Assembly (NCBI RefSeq): GCF_963676685.1
Contig: NC_092351.1
Span: 7,874,001 to 7,938,000, forward strand
Source: Mytilus edulis
Taxonomy: Eukaryota
Direction: 5' to 3'
Length of the DNA: 64,000 bases
The translations under genes and the position numbers were made by a program. The first letter of the stretch is position 1. Every line of letters starts with the position of its first letter. The notes under the pieces were generated by a model that was given only the letters and a program-made list of their open reading frames with translations, did no database searches and was not told the DNA's origin. Of the stretch, positions 4,475-62,210 are shown in pieces.

Positions 4475-6189
4475 TGTGTAGAATTTATTGCACTAAAATG
4501 AGAAATTACAGGCAAATTGCATTGATCAGTCTTAATATTTACAAAGCACATGAATAATAATCGACTTTGCTTTTTGTTGATACAAAATTACGCACAACGA
4601 TATAATAATACCGAATATAACAACTAGTAAAAGATGACGTCAAATACATTGAACACAACTTTCTGCAAATTTTATAAAAGGAAGGAATAAAATCATTAGA
4701 GAAAAAGATTACACCACTATATAACACGTGTAATACGATATTTCTCAACTTTCAACATTTTAATTATTAAAAAAAAAGGTACGAGGGTGGTTTTAAACAA
4801 ACACGAAATCAAATATTTCAAAACAAAATGAATAACTGAATTTATGAATAAAAATATAAAGCTTTTCTCTCCGAACTAAATAAGATGGATAAGGTATGGA
4901 ATAGACAAATGGATTACAATAATCATAGTATGGTAGCAAATTGACATAATGCTATTTGAAGGAGAGGAGCGGTACTTTTCGTTGATTTCGGATCAATTTA
5001 TAGATACTGTCACGAGCACTTAAAATTACCATAAATAGGTGACATCGGCTCATCGTTTAAAAACTTAAGATTAATGTTCGTAAATCTGACGTTAAGGAAC
5101 ACAAACTGAAATTGACAAAATACGATTAGGGTCGGGGCACCGTATGATGAAATTTGGATCAATGTAAAGAGATTGTGACGGTAAACGATTATAAATACAT
5201 TGTGGAGGAGTCGTCGGCGCATCGTGTAGGAAAATCTTTTTGACTATTTCAGGTTTTTATCTCAACTTCAGAATTTCTATACTTTTGTGCGATTGACCAC
5301 GCAACATCACTCCCCGCTAAACAAAATTCGTGTTTACCCGAATTATCATAAAAGGAACAAAATTAACTAAATAAGTATTTCAAATGGGGTGGTAGTACGA
5401 ATATTAAAAGTAAGCTATATTTATCTAATAAAACTATACTCAAATTTAAACCAAATGTCAAAGGAAAAAAATATGCACACGTCTGATATTTTGTCAATTT
5501 TCGTCGTGATAAAGAAACGGAAAATTTGCAAAAAGATTACTCTTGAAAAAAATAGACATTATAACTTAAAAAATGTATACTAAATCTGTAAAAATTAGGG
5601 TATCAATCATAAAAACATACAAAATAAATATGATATTGTAAAAAGTTTAACAACTTTTAAATTAGTCAATATGTATGCATTATAAAGTCTATCATCTATC
5701 AAACGCTCATTAAATGATTAAATAAATAAAAACGTCATTCATAATCATCTCATCGATATTTAAGTAAGGTAACTGGTCAACTTTTCCTGAGGAAGTAGGA
5801 ACCTTGGTTTCATAGTCATTTCAAGATTTATCAACGAAGATGTGTATATACATTGTGTAAGTAACGAAACAATGACTACTGAGCTGAAATGTCATTCGAG
5901 GACTTAAAGACCAACAGCAAAGTTATCGAATATTTTCCTTGTAGGTTTTAGCGTCCAAACATAAAGCATAAAAGTTGGTATATTTTACGGTTCAAGATGA
6001 TTGTCAAATCATGTTGATATCTAAAATTTTGAATAGAAATGACAAAACAAATAGATAAGCAAAAAAATGATAAACAAATTTGATTTTTTTTAAATAGTCT
6101 CAGATAGGGGAATGGCAATGGCAATACATCATTAATCCTGAAATTGAACTAACATTCAGGCAAACGAAATTAACAAAAGTGGTATATAC

Positions 6190-6435
6190 TCATCATAGAT
6201 ACCAGGATTGAAATTTTGTGTATACGCGCGTTTCGTCTATTAAAGACTCATCAGTTTCGCTCGAATTAAAAATAATAAAAAGACTAATAGAAATTAAAGA
6301 GCATTGAGGACCAAAAACTCCGAAAAGTGTGCCAAATACAGCTAAGTTAATCTATTCCTAAGGTAGAAAAGACCTAGTATTTCAAAAATTCAAAGTTTTG
6401 TAAACAGGTAATTTTTAGTTATAACCATATCAATA
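6190..6435 (-). mobile_element. Retrozyme family A partial copy (hammerhead core intact, stem I damaged)
   Basis: Reverse complement reads CTGATGA-GTCT-TTAAT-AGAC-GAAAC-GCGC-GTA. The body matches the 51676-52711 unit. The post-cleavage stem I strand appears deleted. Confidence 0.8.
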
Positions 6436-6964: not shown

Positions 6965-7440
6965 TAGACATGTGTTTTTCCCGTTCGAATTGGTTTACAC
7001 TAGTAATTTTTGGGCCCTTTATAGCTTGCTGTTAGGTGTGAGCCAAAGCTCCGGGTTGAAGGCTGTACCTTGACCTATAATGTTTTACTTTTATAAATTG
7101 TTACTTGGATGGAGATTTTTCTCATTGACACTCATACCACATCTTCCTATATCTATTACATATTTTGTAGCTGGTACATCGAAATTAGAAGATGCGGTAT
7201 GAGTGCCAATGAGACAACTCTCCATCCAAGCCACAATTTGTTCACAGTAAACCATTATAGGACAAGCTATTTATGCCCCAAATGACAAGTATAAAGAAAA
7301 TTCAAACAGTACAACCACTTGTTTAATCTGTAAAAAAAAACCCGAGAAACATTTATGAACAACATCACTAAAGGACAACCACTGAACAACAGGTTCATGA
7401 CTTAGGACAGGTGCAAAAAAGTATGTAGCGGGTCTAAATG
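6965..7440. mobile_element. Two tail-to-tail copies of an abundant SINE-like interspersed repeat (tail GAGAGTTGTCTCATTGGCA.TCATACCACATCTT)
   Basis: Plus copy ends at ~7150 and minus copy starts at ~7187. The same tail recurs at ~283, 13610, 20155, 26178, 30015, 30530, 52980 and 54235. Confidence 0.7.
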
Positions 7441-14661: not shown

Positions 14662-14972
14662 GTCCCCGAGGGTATCACCAGCCCAGTAGCCAGTACTTCG
14701 GTACTGGCATGAAAATACAGATTTTTTGTGTTATTAAAATTTGCTGTTACAAAATGATAGAAATTATTATAAATTAAGGAATGTATCTCCCTCATGCAAA
14801 GCCCTGATTTCTTTCACAGATTGGGCTATACTTTTTGGACCTTTTGGATTATATCTCTTTATCTTTTACATAAGCTTTGGATTTCAAATATTTTGGCCAC
14901 GAGCACCACTGAAGAGACAGGTATTGTCGAAATGCGCATCTGGTGCAAGAAAATTGGTACCGTTAATTTTAT
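14662..14972 (+). ncRNA. Retrozyme family B copy with intact type I hammerhead ribozyme (14903-14946)
   Basis: GCACCA-CTGAAGA-GACA(ggtat)TGTC-GAAA-T(GCGC)A-TC^TGGTGC. Stem I is GCACCA/TGGTGC, stem II is GACA/TGTC, and a minimal stem III carries a palindromic GCGC loop. Confidence 0.88.
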
Positions 14973-18721: not shown

Positions 18722-18814
18722 GGTTATGTTCTTCTCATATATTTTATGATAGTATGATACTAAACCCCTAACGGGAGGGATTGTGCTTGATATTCATATG
18801 ATGCAGACATAATC
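18722..18814 (+). promoter_or_regulatory. Type II SECIS element (selenocysteine insertion sequence) in the PLE 3' UTR
   Basis: Helix I TCATAT/ATATGA, extended by GGTTATGTT/GACATAATC. Core ATGAT (18746-50) opposite TGAT (18788-91). Helix II AGTATGATACT/GGGATTGTGCT. AAA at 18762-64. Apical ministem CCC/GGG. Confidence 0.78.
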
Positions 18815-19522: not shown

Positions 19523-20740
19523 AGGAAACAATTAAAAAAAAAGTAGTAAACAACCTACAACATACTACACAGGAAAAGGTTAATTCAAGTACTGTTGATG
19601 AACTTTTGCTAGAATTCAAAACAAATATAAGTGAATTAGTCAGTCATCATATTCCACACAAAAAAATAATTGTAAAAACTAAAACCCCATGGATTACAGA
19701 TGAAGCATGAAAATAAATGAAAACGAGAGACAGCCTATATAAAGACAAAAAAGCTTGAAATTACAGCATTAGAAACAAATATAATCAAATTAAATTTCAG
19801 GTACAAAAACATATTGGCAGGACTTTGAAGAAATTGTTACACCAAATCCGGATGAAAAAAACCTTTTCCAATATAAAAAGAAAAAAAACCTAACTAAGTG
19901 GAATAACATCACTAAGTTTAAAATTGAATGTGAAACTGATATAACAGACACGAAACAGAAATCCGATGCCCTCAACAGGCTTATTCAATTAGGTTTTTCT
20001 GTAGAACCTAACATAATCACTGCTATTGAATTTGAAAACAATAATTAAATGCAACAGAAAAATAGCGTACTGTTGTTCGGTGTGAGCTAAGGCTCCGTGT
20101 TGAAGGCCGTACTTTAACCTATAATGGTTTACTTTTTAAATTGTTATTTGTATGGAGAGTTGTCTCATTGGCACTCACACCACATCTTCCTATATCTATC
20201 TACCATGCAAAACATAAACATAACCATCCAAAAACTTCTAAATCTATACTCGTCAAAGACATGTGGACCAGATTAACTAATGCCACGCCTCTTCAGATAG
20301 TAAGCGCATGAAATATCACAAAACTATGCATTATATACCAGAAATCATTATAGACACTAGCGAAAATCCCATTTTCAAGAAATGGTCCAAATATAATCCA
20401 GAGAATTATAGACATATGTTGCGAAATTATGGAACATGTTGTGGTTAGCGCAATTATGACACGCGCAGACAACCGTAACCACCTGTATCCTCTACAACAC
20501 CATGAACATGGCTTTCGAAAAATCAAATCCTGTGAAACTCGGCCTTTGGAACTTATCGAAGATGCCACTATAAATATGGAAAACTGAAAGCAAACAGATG
20601 AACTTATTATGAACTTTGACGAAGTTTTGATAGAGTCAGTCATAATTTATTAACACAAAAGCTAGATTACTCTGGAATAACGGGGAAACAAATGCATGTA
20701 TAGAGGGCGTTTTTAACCGATACCAGACAATCTCAACATG
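19523..20740 (+). mobile_element. CR1/L2-type LINE remnant, RT region (interrupted by a SINE-like copy at ~20065-20200)
   Basis: CGPD, CEIMEHVV and HGFRKIKSCET motifs plus a D.SKAFD.V.H-like relic. Many stops. Confidence 0.65.
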
Positions 20741-23627: not shown

Positions 23628-24404
23628 CACTAGATCTAGTATGCTTGGACCAATTTAATATATTTAACACTTTTGTTGGTATTAGTGAAACTACGCTTAT
23701 TTTTTTATTTGTAAATTTTTATTGTTAGTCACTCTAGAGTTATGGCTCTTTAATTATTCTTTTTCTAATCAGAATCTATTTTCATATGAATGTCTCCCTA
23801 CACAGTCATTTTTCTTACTTGTTATTAAATGTTCCCGATCTTTCTCGCGACAATTATAAAGCACGATGCAAAGGTATCATATGCTATTTGCGTATTTGAA
23901 TGTATCGTATATCATTGAGGTGTGTAACACAGAATACTTACATTCTGACAAAAGTTTGTAGATAATTGGTAGTAATAGTTATTCAAAGTGTTGGTGTATA
24001 TGTAAATATAGTAAGATGATCACTCAGAAACATGTGCATCTTTGTCCCTTCTTCTTAATTATCAACATAAATTTGACTTAACATTCTATGAGAAGCCTGA
24101 AACAGTGAAGTCAAAACTATTCATTGATCTGGTAGCGGAGCTAATCTTGAATACTCGAATTGTAATTCTGTCCGTAATTGAAATACGCGACTGCGAACAT
24201 TTACACTTAATTATTTTACTGCCAGGATGTAGAAGCAAAGGAAAAAGATTTTGTTTCTGATCTCCAGTCAAACCTTTATTTTTGAACAATAGAATGTATT
24301 TAAGAATAGATGATGATAATGTACATTAACAATGTGCCACCATATACAATTTCGGGATGAACTAGTTGGCTAGGCGTCGGAATGGTCAATTCAATTGTGT
24401 CTGT

Positions 24405-24740
24405 TTTTATGTATCCTTGGCTTTCAAATACTTGGCTTTGAGCGTTCGCCTGATGAAGGTTTATCCAGAAAAGTGCTTCGGACACATAAAATTAATATAA
24501 CACGTTGTTTTCATTTTTTGCAGCACTAGGTCGGTACCTCTGCATATTTGACCTAAGATGTATTTGTCTATCTTATTAGGTTATTTTTTTTTATTGTAGC
24601 TCTTCAATTGTTTCGGTTCTAATAAATCCTTTGCTTTCAAATATTTGACTTTAAACGTTCCTGATGAAGGTAAATCCAGAAAAGCACTTCGAACGCATGT
24701 AATTTTATATACTAGTAACGTGTTGTTTTCATTTTTCATT
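24405..24740 (+). ncRNA. Retrozyme family C dimer: two type I hammerhead-like motifs ~210 nt apart
   Basis: CGTTC-CTGATGA-AGG(taaat)CCA-GAAA-A(GCAC)T-TC^GAACG at 24655-24696, with a sister copy at 24440-24486. Confidence 0.72.
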
Positions 24741-27089: not shown

Positions 27090-27625
27090 TAGTTATCAAA
27101 GGTATCAGAATTATAATTTAATACACCAGACACGCATTCGTCTACACAAGACTCATCAGAGACAATCAAATCAAAATAGTTATAAAGTCAAGCAAGTACA
27201 AAGTTGAAGAGCATTGAGGACCAAAAATTCCAAAAAAGTTGTCCCAAATACGGCTAAGGTAATCAATCTGTTGTAATCGAAGATTTATAGAAATGACCAT
27301 ATAATTTATATTCATGTCATCACCGAAGTGCGGACTACTGGGCTGGTGATACCCTCGAGGACGAAACGTCCACCAGCAGTGGTATCAACCTAGTGGTGTA
27401 AATAGTTATCAAAGGTACCAGGATTATAATTTAATACGCCAGACGCGCGTTTCGTCTACATACGACTCATCAGTGACGCTCAGATTAAAATAATTATAAA
27501 GCCAAACAAGTACAACGTTGAAGAGCATTGATGACCCAAAATTCCAAAAAAAGGTTGTGCCAAATACGGCTAAGGTAATCAATCTGTGTCTGGGATCAGA
27601 AAATCTTAGTTTTTCGAAATGTTCA
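27090..27625 (-). ncRNA. Retrozyme family A tandem copy (two hammerheads; 27436-27480 intact) in the lectin intron, sense orientation
   Basis: Reverse complement of 27436-27480 reads AGCGTCA-CTGATGA-GTC(gtatgta)GAC-GAAAC-GCGC-GTC^TGGCGT. A second degenerate copy is at ~27125-27165. Confidence 0.88.
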
Positions 27626-28073
27626 ACCAAAGGTCACCAGCAAGCACGAAAGACAAGAAACACAATTTTACCATGGCACAACAAAATACTTTACAATTTG
27701 CATCGGACCTCGCAATTTGATTAGCTAGCATGATTTTGGTTAATGCATATCAACAAAGCTTTTCAACGGCATAAGTCTGTAAGAGACGAGATTAAAAAAA
27801 ATCATCAGATTCCTTGAAATGTATTTTGTATTTATTCATGGTTCATATATCACATCAAAATGTAAAATGTTCGTGTGTGCATGTAAAGTTAATTTCGTTG
27901 CTGAGTTCTTTCATTATACTATGTTGCTTTGTATCTTTTTAAAGATGACTATTACAATTAACCTTATAGAGATCAATGTTATTGTTTCCTTAAATAATAG
28001 AAAAAAATTCAAGTAAATTTCAAACCTGATTTATGAAGCTGGTATAAAACATTCTAAATATATCTTCTTTTAC

Positions 28074-29360: not shown

Positions 29361-29499
29361 CTACCAAAACATAGATAAACATATATATATGGATGGATTA
29401 CAAGATGTTACAAAATGAAATTTCATTATTAATTTAATACCAGAAAAATAACAGAAAACAATAAACTTGCGGAAAAGATTGTATACCACATCATATCTG

Positions 29500-29535
29500 G
29501 ATTTCGACAATTAATGTCTCTTCAGTAATTTTAGG
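29500..29535 (-). ncRNA. Decayed family B hammerhead relic in a lectin intron
   Basis: Reverse complement reads CTGAAGA-GACA(ttaat)TGTC-GAAA. Stems I and III are degenerate. Confidence 0.5.
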
Positions 29536-36059: not shown

Positions 36060-36562
36060 TTTGTTATTCATTAATCATGTGTTTCTTTATTTAATACGTT
36101 CTCCTATTAATTTGTATTGTAGTCCTGTATTATTATGTTGTCATTTCAATGTTATATTTAACATTGCCATTAAAGTGCGAGGTTTGGCATGCCACAAAAC
36201 CAGGTTCAACCCACCATTTTTTCCCTTTAAAAAATGTCCTGTACCAAGTCAGGAATATGGCCATTGCTTTTATTATAGTTCGTTTCTGTGTGTGTTACAA
36301 TTTATTGACATTGCGATAAGACGTGTCACGGTACTTGTCTATCCCAAATTCTTGTATTTGGTTTTGATGTTATATTTGTTATTCTCGTGGGATTTTGTCT
36401 GATGCTTGGTCCGTTTCTGTGTGTGTTACATTGTAGTGTTGTTTCGTTGTTCTCCTCTTATATTTATGCGTTTCCCTCAGTTTTAGTTTGTTATCCCGAT
36501 TTTGTTTTTTGTCCATGGATTTATGAGTTTGAACAGCGGTATACTACTGTTGCCTTTATTTA
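36060..36562 (+). mobile_element. SINE-like repeat (core GGTTCAACCCACC..TGTACCAAGTCAGGAATATG, tail GCGGTATACTACTGTTGCCTTTATTT)
   Basis: Related minus-strand copies at ~10970-11240, 34515-34700 and 35778-36025. Confidence 0.65.
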
Positions 36563-47240: not shown

Positions 47241-48637
47241 AAGGGAAGGGCATTAGCTGTCAAAACGATGTTCATAGCTGTAAAATCGATGTTCATAGCT
47301 GTCAAATCGATGTTCATAGCTGTCAAATCGATGTTGATCGATTTGATAAGAGTTTTCATGTTTAAATTATAAGATGCGTAAACGTATATCCAAAAAAACA
47401 AAACATAAAAGACATACAATAAACAAAGCATGGACTGGATATTATTATCAGCATTACGTATGTATTTGAGACGAGATCTATACTGATTAGCCTCGGTAGA
47501 CTGCCGATGGATCATATAACCCGATAAAAGATAAAGAGATAGCGAGGACGTGCTTTCAGATCTGTTTGATTTTATACTATGAGTGGGAAAAGTGGCAATC
47601 ATTGTTTTTACCTGTATAAGAAGGATATTTTGTAGATCGAATCACTCTGCGACCAAATGGTTCACCCTGGTTTCACTCACAATGTTGACATTATTTTAGT
47701 CAATTATTTATTTTATTGTTAGTAGCAGCATGCTAACGCCCTGTTCATGCGTAAAAGAGGGACGAAAGATGCCAGATGTCAAACTCATAGATAGAAAATA
47801 AACTGACAACGCCATGGCTTAAAATAAAAAGTCAAACAGACAAATAATAGTACAGAAGACAAAACATAGACAAAGCAACACGAACCCCATATGATCACAG
47901 GTGCTCCGGAAAGGTAAGCAGATCCTGTAAACCATTTATAGGTTAGTGGTTGAATTAAAGGTCACAGTGATACGGATTCAATAAGGTTAAATTATTTACT
48001 TGGATGCAGTTTTTGAGCTTATTTTGACAAAGTTTTGCCAAACTGACATGACTGCTTTTTCATTTTGTTTTTTATTTTATTAAATCTATAGAAATGCATG
48101 AAAATGATTGCACACGAAAGCTGATACACATCATCAAGCCCATGCATTGTTCTTTGTCAAGTGATTAAACAATCATGTCAATTTTTGATATTATGCTTAC
48201 TTGCGTTTATTTTAAACAACCACAATGTAAATATTGAAAGTTGACATTAAGCATTGCTTAAAACATCTTGTTTACTTATTGTTTGCTTATTTGTGGAGAA
48301 TGAGTAACATTACAAAAATACTGAACTCCGTGGAAAATTCAAAACGGAGAGTCCCTAATTAAATGTCAAATTCAAAAGCTCAATCCCCGAGGGTATCACC
48401 AGCCCAGTAGTCAGCACTTCTGTGTTGACTTGAGATATCATTGATATGTTCATAATAATAAATTAACTGTTACCAAAATTTTTGAAATACTAAGGTTTTT
48501 CAACCTCAGGAAAAGATTACCTAAGCTGTATTTGGCAAAACGTTTAGGAATTTTTGGTCCTAAATGCTCTTCAACTTCGTACTTTTTTGGGCCTATTAAA
48601 CATTTTTTTTTATTCAAGCGTAACTGATGAGTCTTGG
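47241..48637 (+). repeat. Segmental duplication block B (paralog 60337-61677), including a Naiad tail relic and a retrozyme A fragment
   Basis: Colinear from AGGGAAGGGCATTAGCTGTC to GCGTAACTGATGAGTCTT. Confidence 0.9.
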
Positions 48638-51675: not shown

Positions 51676-52711
51676 GTTTCGTCCCCGAGGGTATCACCAG
51701 CCCAGTAGTTAACACTTCGGTGTTGACATGAATATCAATAATGTGGTCATTTTTATAAATTTCCTGTTTACAAAACTTTGAATTTTTCGTAAAACTAAGG
51801 ATTTTCTTATCCAAGGCATAGATTACCTTAGCCGTATTTGGCACAACTTTTTGGAATTTTGAATCCTTAATGCTCTTCAACTTTGTATTTGTTTGCATTT
51901 ATAAATATTTTGATATGAGCGTCACTGATGAGTCTTACGTAGACGAAACACGCGTCTGGCGCACTTTATTATAATCCTGGTACTTTTGATAACTATTTAC
52001 ACCACTGGGTCGATGCCACTGCTGGTGGACGTTTCGTCCCCGAGGGTATCACCAGCCCAATAGTTAACACTTCGGTGTTGATATGAATATCAATAATGTG
52101 GTCATTTTTTTTTAAATTTCCTGTTTACAAAACTTTGAATTTTTCGTAAAACTAAGGATTTTCTTATCCCAGGCATAGGTTACCTTAGCCGTATTTGGCA
52201 CAACTTTTTGGAATTTTGGATCCTTAATGCTCTTCAACTTTGTACTTGTTTGTCTTTATAAATAATTTGATATGAGCGTCACTGATAAGTCTTATGTAGA
52301 CGAAACGCGCGTCTGGCGTACTAAATTATAATCCTGGTACTTTTGATAACTATTTACACCACTGGGTCGATGCCACTGCTGATGAACGTTTCGTCCCCGA
52401 GGGTATCACCAGCCCAGTAGTTAACACTTCGGTGTTGACATGAATATCAATAATGTGGTCATTTTTATAAATTTCCTGTTTACAAAACTTTAATTTTTTT
52501 CGTAAAACTAAGGATTTTCTTATCCCAGGCATAGATTACCTTAGCCGAATTTGGCACAACCTTTTTGGAATTTTGGATCCTTAATGCTCTTCAACTTTGT
52601 ACTTGTTTGGCTTTATAAATATTTTTAAATGAGCGTCACTGATGAGTCTTGTGTAGACGAAACGCGCGTCTGGCGTACTAAATTATAATCCTGGTACTTT
52701 TGATAACTATT
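51676..52711 (+). ncRNA. Retrozyme family A: tandem array of ~355-nt units with three type I hammerhead ribozymes
   Basis: Unit periods 355 and 357 nt. Cores at 51925, 52282 (CTGATAA variant) and 52639 read GCGTCA-CTGATGA-GTCT(n5)AGAC-GAAAC-GCGC-GTC^TGGCG. Predicted cleavage after 51956, 52313 and 52670. Confidence 0.93.
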
Positions 52712-53132: not shown

Positions 53133-53311
53133 AAAATTAACGGTACAAATTTTCTTTCACCAGATGCGCATTTCGACAATACATGTCTCTCTGGTGATGC
53201 TAGTGACCAAAATATTTGAAATCCAAAGCTTATATAAAAGATGAAGAGCTATAACCCAAAAGGTCCAAAAAGTATAGTCAAATCCGTGAAAGGAATCAGA
53301 GCTATGCATGA
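53133..53311 (-). mobile_element. Retrozyme family B partial copy (core mutated) nested in a SINE-like repeat
   Basis: Reverse complement of 14792-14970. The core reads CCAGAGA instead of CTGAAGA. Confidence 0.8.
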
Positions 53312-57508: not shown

Positions 57509-59019
57509 TTAAATTTACAGTCTAGTGTTTATATTATGATATTCAGGATTTTGGATTAAAATCAATCGACCAAAACTCACCTGTATTATTACTGATCTAT
57601 GTTTACACCTTATACATTATATATCAGTATTGTTAAAACTTTTGACACAGAAGAAGGCCATTTGTTGAGCCGAACAATTTGCAATTATTGTATAATTTAT
57701 ATCATCTGTTCAGTTTTTTCGATCTTTGTGCGATGATATTCAACACTTTTTAGGGTTTTGTTTCCCATCTATTTATCGGTATTGTTACACAATCTTTTAG
57801 ACTCATATAAATATATAGCATAGTTTCATTATTCAATTAACGGTTATAATCTGCCTTGGATAAAACATGTTATTTCAATTCTAAACCAATGCAGACTGAT
57901 ACTTACACCTACAGATGTAGAATGAAGATAAGTGTCTACCATATTAAGCTTTAAACAACCGCCCACTGATCAGTTTAGATAAATATGGTATGCGATAATC
58001 GGGAATCTCCGAAATATATAAAATACATGAAATGTTTTTAAAGATGATTTGGATTTTGATAATTATTTTTATATTCTGGGAGATATAGAGATTTCAAAAT
58101 TTTAAGATTCATGTTGTTTGTTATCTCTACATGCTTTATCTATATTATTGATACAACATGTTTATTTTGTCATTTGTATATAATGCTATCAAATGTGACC
58201 TTATGTTTCAAATGTATCTGTGTGTTAATGTTCAAATAAAATCTCTGAAACCAATCCAGAAACAAGATATTGTTATAAATTCTGAGATTAGAATTTCCGT
58301 TGAAACTATAATATCAAGTTTATGAAATGGAAAATAATCAATTCGTTCTTAAAGATCAGTTCAAATGTATAGAGTACAATGTATATTGTGAACAATTTGA
58401 AACATCCGTTATATCATCTGCAATTAATGGTGAAATACATATCACACGTTTATCTGATATGCCATAATAACAAAGAGAAAATCATTGTTAAATCGGCATT
58501 GGTCGTCTTATATACTTTATCCTCTAAACTCAATTAACAAAGGTACAGAGACAGAAAAACACAATAATTCAATATGCAATGCTTTATATGATACATGGAG
58601 TACATATTATACATATGTACAAAAGACAAAAGAAAAAAAATAAACTAAAAAAAAGTTAAATCTCCAGATATTCGATATCTATAAAAATTACAAGATAAAA
58701 AAAGGTACATAATGAAAAATTAAGTAACTAGGGGGACTTACTTTTGATTTTTTTTTCACAATTTTTTTAACTTTGAAATCCTTTTTGTATTAAACAGTGA
58801 AATTTATCAATTTTTAGTCTCATGTAATAACATGAAGGAAGGACATTTTTCTTTTCAATTTTTATAGCAGGGTATATATATCATGTACTCATTTAGTTTT
58901 TATAGCATGAAATTCTCCTATTCAACAAAAATTCTCCTATTTAACAACATATTGACAATAAATTAATGAAAAGCCGATCTACCCTGTCTGTTAACATGAC
59001 AAATGTTTCCATGTTATAG

Positions 59020-59415
59020 TTAATAGTTATCAAAAGTACCAGGATTATAATTTCATACGCCAGACGCGCGTTTCGTCTACATAAGACTCATCAGTGACGC
59101 TCACATCAAAATAGTTAAAAAGCCAAATAAATACAAAGTTGAAGAGCATTGAGGATCCAAAATTCCAAAAAGTTGTGCCAAATACGGCTAAGGTAATCTA
59201 CTCCTGGGGTAAGAAAATCCTTAGTTTTTCGAAAAATTCAAAGTTTTGTAAACAGGAAATTTATAAAATGACCATATAATTGATATTCATGTCAACACCG
59301 AAGTGCTGACTACTGGGCTGGTGATACCCTCGGGGACGAAACGTCCACCAGCAGTGGCATCGACCCAGTGGTGTAAATAGTTATCAAAAGTACCAGGATT
59401 ATAATTTCATACGCC
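59020..59415 (-). ncRNA. Retrozyme family A young insertion: one full unit plus a 40-nt terminal redundancy, intact hammerhead at 59056-59101
   Basis: AATAGTTATCAAAAGTACCAGGATTATAATTTCATACGCCA occurs at both ends. The insert is absent from the paralogous site at ~49453. Confidence 0.92.
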
Positions 59416-61419
59416 ACACCATGGGTGCCACTTAAAGCATTATCTCTAACATACTCTCTGTAGCATAAGTTTTCATTGTTTATGTTTTGGTTTGTCTTGT
59501 TCGATTGTTGTGAAATGTTGTGCACTATTTATTGTCTGTTATTACTATTTTTGCAATTCATTGTTCTATTTATGATTTTTTAAATTGTCTGCTTGTTTTC
59601 ATTTTCACCTCATTTTCCTTAATAACTTTTCTAAACTCATACAGTGGCCTTCCAAGGAACTTTCAATTGTTGCTTATAATAACCTGGGTAAATGAAGTAA
59701 AATAATACAATGTAATACTGTAGATATGATTTGTATTGGTATCCTTTGTTTAAAAGTAGAGAGTATACATAACAATAGTGCAGATAAAAAAAGGAAAATG
59801 TCACACATATAGATGTTTTTCAAATACATTGAAAAGACATGTTATTTTTTTTCCATGTATTATTTTGTTTGTCATTTATATCATAATCTCCAGTTTGTAG
59901 GCTATTCATAATTAACATTGACATATCTCAATACTTCATAACAGTTTGACAAACAAAATTGTTCCTACTAACTCTAAAATGTTTTTTCTATACCTATAAC
60001 AAATAAAATGCTATGTTTTTTTCTAAAATTTTGTCCACCAGTTTGTTGGTTACATAAAAATACAATCAATATCCAGTTTACAATTTAATTTTAGCATTTA
60101 GGTATTTAAATCTTTCCAATATAGGATATCTTTAAAAAGAAAATGTTTTATACTTCACACATCATTAAGTTCCAAATCTTAGTATTGTTATGAGAAAAAA
60201 CATTTGATCTTAGGAATATATGATGATATAAAACTCAATATATTGTTTGCTGTCAATAAATTTGTGTTACAGCTTTGAGGCATTATCACTGTGACTGGGG
60301 TATAGAAATATGGTCACTTGGTCTTCTCCCGACCGGCAGGGAAGGGCATTAGCTGTCAAATCGATGTTTATAGCTGTCAAATCGATGTTCATCGATTTGA
60401 TTAGAATTTTCATGTTTAAATTATAAGATACTTAAACGTATATCCAAAAAAACAAAACGTAAAAGACATACAATACACAAAGCATGGACTGAATATTATT
60501 ATCAGCATTTCGTATGTATTTAATCTATACTGATTAGCCTCCGCAGACTGCCAATGGATCATATAACCCGATAAAAGATAAAGAGATAGCGAGGAGGTGC
60601 TTTAACGGTCTGTTTGATTTTATACTATGAGTGGAAAAAGTGGCAATCATTGTTTTTACCTGTATAAGAAGGATATTTTGTAGATCGAATCACTCTGCAA
60701 CCAAATGGTTCACCCTGGTTTCACTCACAATGTTGACATTATTTTCCTGTTAGTAGCAGCATGATTACGCCCTGTTCATGTGTAAAAGAGGGACGAAAGA
60801 TGCCAGAGGGACTGTCAAACTCATAGACAGAAAATAAACTGACAACGCCATGGCTTAAAATAAAAAGTCAAACAGACAAATAATAGTACAGAAGACAAAA
60901 CATAGACAAAGCAACATGAACCCCATATGATCTCAGGTGCTCCGAAAAGGTAAGCAGATCCTGTAAACCATTTATAGGTTAGTGGTTGAATTAAAGGTCA
61001 CATGAATACGGATTCAATAAGGTTAAATTATTTACTTGGATGCAGTTTTTGAGCTTATTTTGACAAAGTTTTGCCAAACTGACATGACTGTTTTTTCATT
61101 TTGTGGTTTATTTTATCAAATCTATAGAATTGCATGAACATTATTGCACAGGAAATGCTGATACATATTATCAAGCCCATGCATTGTTCCTTGTCAAGTG
61201 ATTAAACAATCATGTCAATTTTTGATATATGCTTACCTGCGTTTATTTTAAACAACCACAATGTAAATATTGAAAGTTGACATTAAGCATTGCTTAAAAC
61301 ATCTTGTTTACTTATTGTTTGCTTATATGTGGAGAATGAGTAACATTGCATAAATACTGAACTCCGAGGAAAATTCAAAACGGAGAGTCCCTAATTAAAT
61401 GTCAAAATCAAAAGCTCAA

Positions 61420-61740
61420 TCCCCGAGGGTATCACCAGCCCAGTATTCAGCACTTCTGTGTTGACTTTAGTTATCATTGATATGTTCATAATAATAAATT
61501 AACTGTTACCAAAACTTTGAATTTTTGAAATACTAAGGCTTTTCAACATCAGGAATAGATTACCTTAGCTGTATTTGGCAAAACGTTTAGGAATTTTTGG
61601 TCCTAAATGCTCTTCAACTTCGTACTTTATTTGGCCTATTAAACATTTTTTTTTATTCAAGCGTAACTGATGAGTCTTTTGTAGATGAAACACGAGTATA
61701 GCGTACATATACAATTTTAATCCTGGTATCTATAATGAGT
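61420..61740 (+). mobile_element. Retrozyme family A decayed copy (paralog of 48384-48637)
   Basis: Starts TCCCCGAGGGTATCACC. Hammerhead-like CTGATGAGTCT..AGATGAAAC at ~61667-61692. Confidence 0.8.
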
Positions 61741-62210
61741 TTATTTATTCACATCTAAAAACGAATGGATTACAATTGTAAGACCAATCCAATAATGACC
61801 AATTATGTCAATTCATGATGAAATCATTGTACTAATCGCCATATTTGACGCTGTGTAAATATGGTGGGAACTTGCGGAAATGTCAACAAACTGGATCCTC
61901 CATTAGAACTAATTTCAATCAATTTTGAGTACTCCATCGTCGGTTAAAGACCAATCCAATTTATACCAAAGCTGGTATAAAAAGAATATACAATCAAAAA
62001 TAATCAACTGAAAATCATTTAGAATCTCCAGCCTAAAATACCTACACAGTACTATGCTTTTATCAAATAACAGATCCTTATCTATTTTTGAGAATATAGT
62101 GGCATCAAGTTTTGAATTTAGTCACGTTCAGTGCAAGTTTGAGTTTGTTGATGTTTTTCCCTCGGTTTTGTTTTCTCTTAATCGATTTATGACTATTGAA
62201 CTGCTATATA

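Follow-up and report, generated by a model that had tools for sequence, protein, structure and literature searches.

Why should short non-coding repeats with different hammerhead ribozymes carry the same GC-rich block and stop at a fixed place? The question is raised by a 64,000-nucleotide stretch of the Mytilus edulis genome (contig NC_092351.1, positions 7,874,001 to 7,938,000; hereafter the window), and in particular by the retrozyme copy at 14662..14972. A first-pass annotation of the window had described three retrozyme families, A, B and C, and had proposed that their common block was a cis element (reverse transcriptase (RT) recognition site, internal promoter or strong stop) or a processing site matching an antisense motif.

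Penelope-like RTs are the closest retrotransposon kin of telomerase. In Mytilus galloprovincialis, retrozyme RNA self-cleaves and accumulates as circles, according to the text of PMC7229834. For the PLE Poseidon, reverse transcription is described as starting at +111–118, with RNA up to +172 being needed (Frangieh et al. 2024, PMC11167929). In the published texts consulted, both the enzyme mobilising animal retrozymes and the choice of an internal start by PLE RTs are stated as open.

Retrozyme Copies and Families

The block was located at eight positions of the window: 14664, 48385, 51683, 52038, 52395 and 61421 on the plus strand, and 59335 and 27360 on the minus strand. In the 1.37-Gb genome, its strict core gave 5,558 exact matches and a wider core 10,076, compared with 0 for the reversed control and 0 for the control, respectively, so the block as first reported is real.

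The three hammerhead variants were also recovered. Rfam Hammerhead_1 matched five family A copies, only one of them above the gathering score, and the hammerheads of family B (CUGAAGA core, AUC site) and family C (24450 and 24661) were detected by motif scan only. Both of the latter have a 2-bp stem III and a GCGC loop, and that of C has a non-canonical stem II base. A type I hammerhead in each unit, together with short, dispersed, AT-rich tandem units (357 nt in A, 350 nt in B) within the 170–400-nt retrozyme range, fits A, B and C being metazoan non-LTR retrozymes.

The copy at 14662..14972 (+) is a single 5'-truncated family B monomer beginning at unit position ~40, as judged from its sequence, the motif scan and genome-wide copies. 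It contains only the 3' half of the Naiad-type hairpin module described below (14662..14687, +), followed by a retrozyme-specific C(UUCG)G hairpin (14689..14708, +), whose stems differ between A and B and pair in both, and by the type I hammerhead (14903..14946, +) with its CUGAAGA core and a predicted cut after 14940, found by motif scan without an Rfam match. Family B consists of 350–351-nt tandem units, and the block was present in every full unit; therefore, the 14662 copy is not a chimera, and the module is not confined to chimeric copies. An ATG follows the module region (window 14709–14712) in A, B and C as well as in the Naiad families N1–N3; in the retrozymes it is probably what is left of a Naiad start codon.

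Family A is represented by an array of 2.9 units of 357 nt (51676..52711, +; Rfam and motif scan). Folding and alignment placed a complete module, comprising helix a, helix b, the invariant core and the variable loop, at 52004..52061 (+), right after the fixed end of the preceding unit at 51995, and a second complete module lies at 52361..52418 (+). Two partial tandems of the same family are found on the minus strand, one at 59019..59419 with a complete module at ~59312–59369 and one at 27090..27626 with an internal deletion and a module at ~27337–27394. A second family B copy (53133..53311, −) is 5'-truncated, has the fixed 3' end and lacks the module. The copies at 48384..48635 (+; 3'-truncated) and 61420..61745 (+; with an inverted Naiad 3' fragment on its 5' flank) belong to a fourth family, A2, and to one 1.35-kb duplication with 93% identity. 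Family C occurs as a dimer with an internal deletion (24400..24735, +; limits approximate). The module relic noted earlier near 24525 was confirmed at 24524–24543; it corresponds to the module's 5' third, with the deletion following, and intact C units carry the whole module. An older A/A2-like copy at 6182..6414 (−) lacks the module. A short repeat that is abundant and ends in a palindrome (window 7007–7238, 13576, 20083–20203, 30517 and others; weak MIR6201 match) is unrelated to the hairpin.

The body of family B had been described as unrelated to that of family A, a view the alignments contradict. Alignment scores were 59 for A–B, 68 for A–C and 68 for B–C, compared with 20–22 ± 3 and a maximum of 34 for dinucleotide shuffles (300 per pair; of the stretches aligned, only that of C contained its hammerhead). 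On these scores, A, B and C are homologous in body, so the idea of a module passed between unrelated families fails for the three of them. At least four module-bearing retrozyme families (A, A2, B and C) are present, plus one without the module: family D, a 542-nt tandem retrozyme with a B-like hammerhead.

The Hairpin Module

The block first noticed proved to be the 3' half of a sense-strand RNA hairpin of ~58 nt, and the module begins ~30 nt further 5'. The hairpin consists of a 7-bp helix a, a 1×4 internal loop, a 6-bp helix b, an invariant core and a free loop, and the same sense-strand minimum free energy fold was obtained for A, B, N1 and N2. In N3, a whole extra helix is present at the bulge and helices a and b are retained. 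The downstream UUCG hairpin is limited to retrozymes.

Alignment of the module showed covarying pairing. Among nine sequences, 197 of 198 cells (99.5%) were paired and six pairs were changed on both sides; 0 of 500 shuffles reached as high, a value which is not a probability, as the set comprises 9–10 related sequences whose kinship inflates the shuffle test. Controls slid along the sequence were 34–51% paired. When helices a and b were counted over ten family representatives, 115 pairs were Watson–Crick, 14 were G–U, none was A–C and one was of another kind. The excess of G–U over A–C pairs favours the sense strand. The antisense strand folds more stably in four of six cases, in registers that differ between families.

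The core is invariant and therefore without covariation, and its pairing is predicted only. The possibility that the core pairs with the 4-nt internal loop, in a pseudoknot resembling telomerase or HDV folds, was considered and rejected: 83% of the cells paired, 6 of 36 did not, and no pair had changed on both sides. An Rfam search of the module returned no match, so identity with an HDV-like or other known ribozyme was not found. An antisense hammerhead was also discarded because the loop is not conserved: the GACGAAAC look-alike behind the proposed antisense processing site is the loop of family A alone and is different in every other family.

A second small hairpin was observed ~75–82 nt after the core, in the first codons of N1–N3 (L213, L182, L484/L488). 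Similar arms were seen by eye in published Naiads, and this structure may extend the binding element.

Occurrence of the Hairpin in Naiads

In an unselected 1.2-Mb sample, a variant of the module was found to open a 3-kb element with N-terminal GIY-YIG, CxC, DKA and RT motifs, that is, a Naiad. Three protein-coding Naiad families, N1, N2 and N3, are present in the genome; their proteins are 50–59% identical, and the hairpin lies 6–17 nt upstream of the ATG in each. N1 and N2 have many open frames of ~1000 aa. Pfam GIY-YIG was above cut-off in N1 and N3, and RVT_1 was below cut-off with GIPMG and YIDD present. N3 has CDC at 443 and DKA at 570, N1 has CSC and DKA in translation, and N2 was assigned to the Naiads by its 50–59% identity and motif. 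No hammerhead core was found in the N1–N3 stretches scanned. Like the Naiads described in the text of Craig et al. 2021 (PMC8557442), N1–N3 thus combine an N-terminal GIY-YIG, CxC (N1 and N3), DKA, an RT core and partial tandems, with no canonical hammerhead.

Family A is 86% identical to N2 over 63 nt and family B 80% over 97 nt, through the ATG. In a BLAST comparison of retrozyme units with the tested Naiad stretches, no homologous stretch besides the module was found; it is therefore between retrozymes and Naiads, and not among A, B and C, that the module is shared by otherwise unrelated elements. Of 227 A/B-type modules, 225 had no Naiad ORF behind them and the other two were insertions into Naiad bodies. 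No Naiad ORF with the exact A/B version of helix b was found, in searches that in part covered match strings and eight retrieved loci.

The core was also present at or near the start of 16 of the 54 published Naiad consensi in the supplement of PMC8557442, from 3 Acropora, 9 bivalve, 3 hemichordate and 1 fish families. For this comparison, the first ~140 nt were inspected in 48 consensi and six were string-searched; it was made by eye and stands outside the pair counts given above. Their helices stay paired, by eye, despite further changes, and the N3 5' end agrees with the published Naiad_Mgal/Mcor start. An HHR core or half core is annotated in 0 of the 16 hairpin-bearing consensi and in 17 of the 38 others in that supplement (Fisher p = 0.0009, the consensi not being phylogenetically independent). 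The main text of PMC8557442 contains 0 matches for 'hairpin' or 'stem-loop', and the conserved 5' hairpin is unremarked there. Horizontal transfer may explain part of the cross-phylum spread.

A metagenome scan returned at least 121 stretches, mostly GC-rich chance matches, with ~13 AT-rich stretches carrying the module among the matches listed; four were used (L383, L384, L417 and L446), L446 being called a Naiad by context only. Another metagenome contig (L409) holds a 42-nt tandem repeat of the module core alone. Short tandem arrays with Naiad-type module cores were seen at G000:C2:95561300-95564113 (279 nt) and L197 (201 nt), and these are possibly hammerhead-less Naiad mini-elements, intermediate towards retrozymes. 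More distant Naiad-like ORF fragments, 34–42% identical to N1–N3, occur at L073 and L128. Selenoproteins are encoded by some bivalve Naiads, and a weak Rfam SECIS_1 match (30.9 bits, below gathering) was noted at window 18736–18800 (+).

Insertion Ends

The fixed 3' ends reported for the window were right to within a few nucleotides: 27090, ~52711, ~59019–59022, 14972 and 53133. In the unselected 1.2 Mb, 96 of 138 anchored terminal copies in six families ended 4–7 nt before helix a: 14/20 in A, 15/17 in A2, 4/5 in B, 16/24 in N1, 29/39 in N2 and 18/33 in N3, where the anchor is T-rich and noisy. In general, T-rich microhomology blurs end positions by ~2 nt. Over all loci collected, the proportion was 201/289. 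The anchored count detects only ends beyond the anchor; without it, ~39 of 68 A-like matches reach the last 9 nt by eye. In family C, seven copies have poly-T and their end position is unreadable. A truncated N1 copy in the window (36535..36562, +; 3' end) stops at the same offset before the place where the module would be expected in a tandem.

Between the hammerhead cut and helix a lie 39 nt in B, 45 in C, 47 in A and 54 in A2; this spacing varies among the retrozymes, and the ends therefore follow the hairpin and not the ribozyme. In the control family D, eight of nine terminal copies end at unit position 399–408, ~360 nt past the cut and often by (TA)n. Family D was observed at L111:5601-6142 and at window ~29480–29530 (−), where its own fixed end lies beside (TA)n and a stem-loop of another kind is predicted immediately downstream; the family is probably served by another PLE clade, which would imply hammerhead swapping among families.

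At 30 N1 loci, 26 copies had the whole module, and upstream of every one of these lay a stretch of its own 3' end, 178 to more than 1400 nt long. This fits a circular or multimeric template; the remaining four were truncated within or after the module, and none began at it. In N3, the own 3' end lay upstream in 8 of 8 copies with the module.

A different picture was obtained for the 5' ends. For these, 3'-anchored terminal copies were taken in genome order until 30 of A and 30 of B had been collected. With three non-terminal copies and two duplicates dropped and two copies censored at the locus edge, the sample counts 53 independent insertions and 52 scored ends. Truncation is random, with ends scattered over many loci at ~0.3% per nt, and two of the 53 A/B insertions begin exactly at unit position 1. 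The first-pass annotation had held that independent copies start at one point (14662, 48384/61420, 51676), which fails on this sample: two of 52 ends fall at unit positions 30–50, where 1.9 are expected (p = 0.58), and 48384 and 61420, two of the four copies cited, are a single duplicated locus. A strong stop for the RT fixing the 5' ends is accordingly unsupported, for want of any 5'-end hotspot. Three window events do begin at positions 36–44, and 13 ends lie within the module region 1–90, a mildly raised rate (p = 0.08). Nevertheless, the strong stop is largely refuted and has become hardly credible.

Flanks were also compared with Naiads. Retrozymes lay in or beside Naiad 3' fragments in 5 of 53 cases (L271, L276, L278, L284 and L301; also window 61420), compared with a background of 44 in 1500, a weak excess (p = 0.02). 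The idea that retrozyme and Naiad co-integrate head to head, which would have spoken for a shared enzyme, was not supported: 5/53 5' flanks and 5/53 3' flanks abut Naiad pieces, mostly at the same loci, which indicates insertion into Naiad fragments.

RNA Evidence

Reads from two stranded RNA runs were placed on a permuted family A unit. Sense depth was ~3- to 10-fold higher than antisense depth and ran on across the junction between the end and the hairpin, where antisense depth about halved. No pile-up of read ends was seen on the family A unit in these runs. Family A RNA is thus read-through over the junction, and short reads fit circles and tandem transcripts alike. Family B reads were seen merely as loose ends.

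Discussion

A cis element, and in particular an RT recognition site, was among the roles first proposed for the block, and it is this proposal that gained support, as the hairpin covaries, is common to protein-coding Naiads and keeps a constant distance from the insertion ends, on their 3' side. We consider it probable that the hairpin in common between retrozymes and Naiads is a Naiad RT-binding element that would fix an internal start 4–7 nt upstream of itself, on RNA in circular or multimeric form. That the RT binds the hairpin and that the start is chosen in this way is an inference, which the analogy with Poseidon supports.

In such a cycle, a tandem transcript would be cut by the hammerhead and then ligated to a circle. 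The Naiad protein would bind the hairpin, nick AT-rich DNA and prime just 5' of the hairpin, and its RT would copy backwards via the hammerhead and the body, with the hairpin being copied last. Further rounds of copying may follow, with a fall-off of ~0.3% per nt. Insertions whose 3' end is fixed and whose 5' end is random would be expected from this, as would partial tandems. Retrozymes may have originated when a Naiad 5' end, from the hairpin through the start codon, was joined to a hammerhead, with the families diverging afterwards.

The HDV-like ribozyme of R2 cuts just 5' of itself, and the mussel hairpin could likewise be a processing element, a self-cleaving or protein-assisted ribozyme cutting just 5' of the hairpin, so that the fixed end would be the RNA's 3' end. 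The core invariant across phyla would suit such a role, as would the annotated HHR pattern of the published consensi (0/16 against 17/38), the scanned N1–N3 stretches free of hammerhead cores and the 2/53 A/B copies starting at unit position 1. It is nonetheless quite unlikely, given that 0/26 N1 copies start at the module and that read ends do not pile up while sense depth crosses the boundary, although religation would mask a cut. The failed pseudoknot (6/36 cells unpaired, no double change) and the lack of an Rfam match also speak against it, and so does the full monomer obtained in vitro from a mussel dimer, which presumably held the module, as described in the text of PMC7229834. In a bolder form, the hairpin would be a new self-cleaving or RT-assisted catalytic RNA that took the hammerhead's place in a Naiad subclade spanning several phyla. 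It would both make the RNA circular and hold the telomerase-related RT at its start site, and the mussel retrozymes would have both ribozymes; this, too, we regard as rather improbable.

The position of the hairpin 6–17 nt before the Naiad ATG invites a reading as an IRES-like leader or internal promoter of the Naiad, retained in retrozymes for expression. Retrozyme A is highly transcribed, and internal promoters near the pLTR boundary are described for Penelope and Chlamys elements in the text of PMC8557442. Such a function would not account for the constant distance to the DNA 3' end that six families show, and the pairing is maintained in retrozymes that have no Naiad ORF. Moreover, a DNA promoter would give neither 14 G–U against 0 A–C pairs nor the compensatory pairs, and no spot was seen where many reads start. 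As the sole role it is unlikely; a dual role, in RT recruitment and expression, is possible. The hairpin might also be a neutral Naiad relic that only aids circle stability, with the end set by local sequence or by the endonuclease. Every end is T-rich, and the homology of A, B and C throughout means that sharing among them needs no function. Yet A and N2 agree at ~86% over the module with nothing else aligning, changes in the module preserve pairing, and N1–N3 and the retrozymes have equal spacing between end and module although what lies upstream of their ends is unrelated, all of which makes a neutral relic a poor candidate. Recruitment of the Naiad RT thus remains the preferred reading.

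Structured RNAs that recruit an RT and set its start are familiar from SINE–LINE pairs, with their common 3' stem-loop, from hepadnavirus epsilon and from the template-positioning elements of telomerase RNA. The mussel hairpin differs from these in lying 3' of the first copied base, so that the next unit, or the circle, would supply it, and no sequence relation is claimed. The retrozyme 3' ends are unlike those of N1–N3, so the shared tail of SINE–LINE pairs was not found here; the retrozyme–Naiad pair would work like a SINE–LINE pair but differs in kind.

As described in PMC11167929, Poseidon reverse transcription also begins within the RNA, at a point downstream of a hammerhead; it depends on RNA lying 3' of that point and has a preference for ATT targets. 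Poseidon belongs to a different PLE clade, and its two starts lie inside the ORF in an AC-rich stem-loop, with no conserved binding structure defined in that text; in the mussel elements, there would be one start, just upstream of a hairpin in the 5' UTR. The non-LTR retrozymes of M. galloprovincialis (Cervera & de la Pena 2020, PMC7229834) share with the present families the type I hammerheads, tandem repeats of ~350–390 nt, thousands of copies and high expression. PLEs were proposed there as mobilisers; the text reports two ribozyme families and names no specific driver, hairpin or fixed end. For vertebrate retrozymes, a terminal sequence in common with PLEs and the use of PLE machinery have been proposed (Li, Clavereau & Pollet 2026, 10.64898/2026.07.22.740005). 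That case concerns Xenopus and homology to hammerhead-bearing pLTRs, and the text seen includes no mollusc, Naiad link or RNA structure; in the mussel, by comparison, the PLE partner is without a hammerhead and the hairpin alone is in common.

Mussel retrozymes and their circles, Naiads, internal initiation by PLEs and the PLE origin of vertebrate retrozymes have already been published. The literature searched, outside which lie subscription journals and the supplements of PMC7229834 (including S4, S6 and S9) and of the 2026 preprint, yielded no mention of the hairpin, of its conservation across phyla, of a link to Naiads or of the spacing rule.

With a 58-nt hairpin that has natural compensatory variants and occurs in young, intact Naiads as well as in retrozymes, both the mobilising enzyme and the choice of the internal start become directly testable. 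If the proposal is true, the hairpin explains the fixed 3' ends and the partial tandems. It also provides a short tag by which non-coding repeats of corals, bivalves, hemichordates and fish can be matched with their drivers and, if portable, could be used to bring a circular RNA of choice to a retrotransposon RT.
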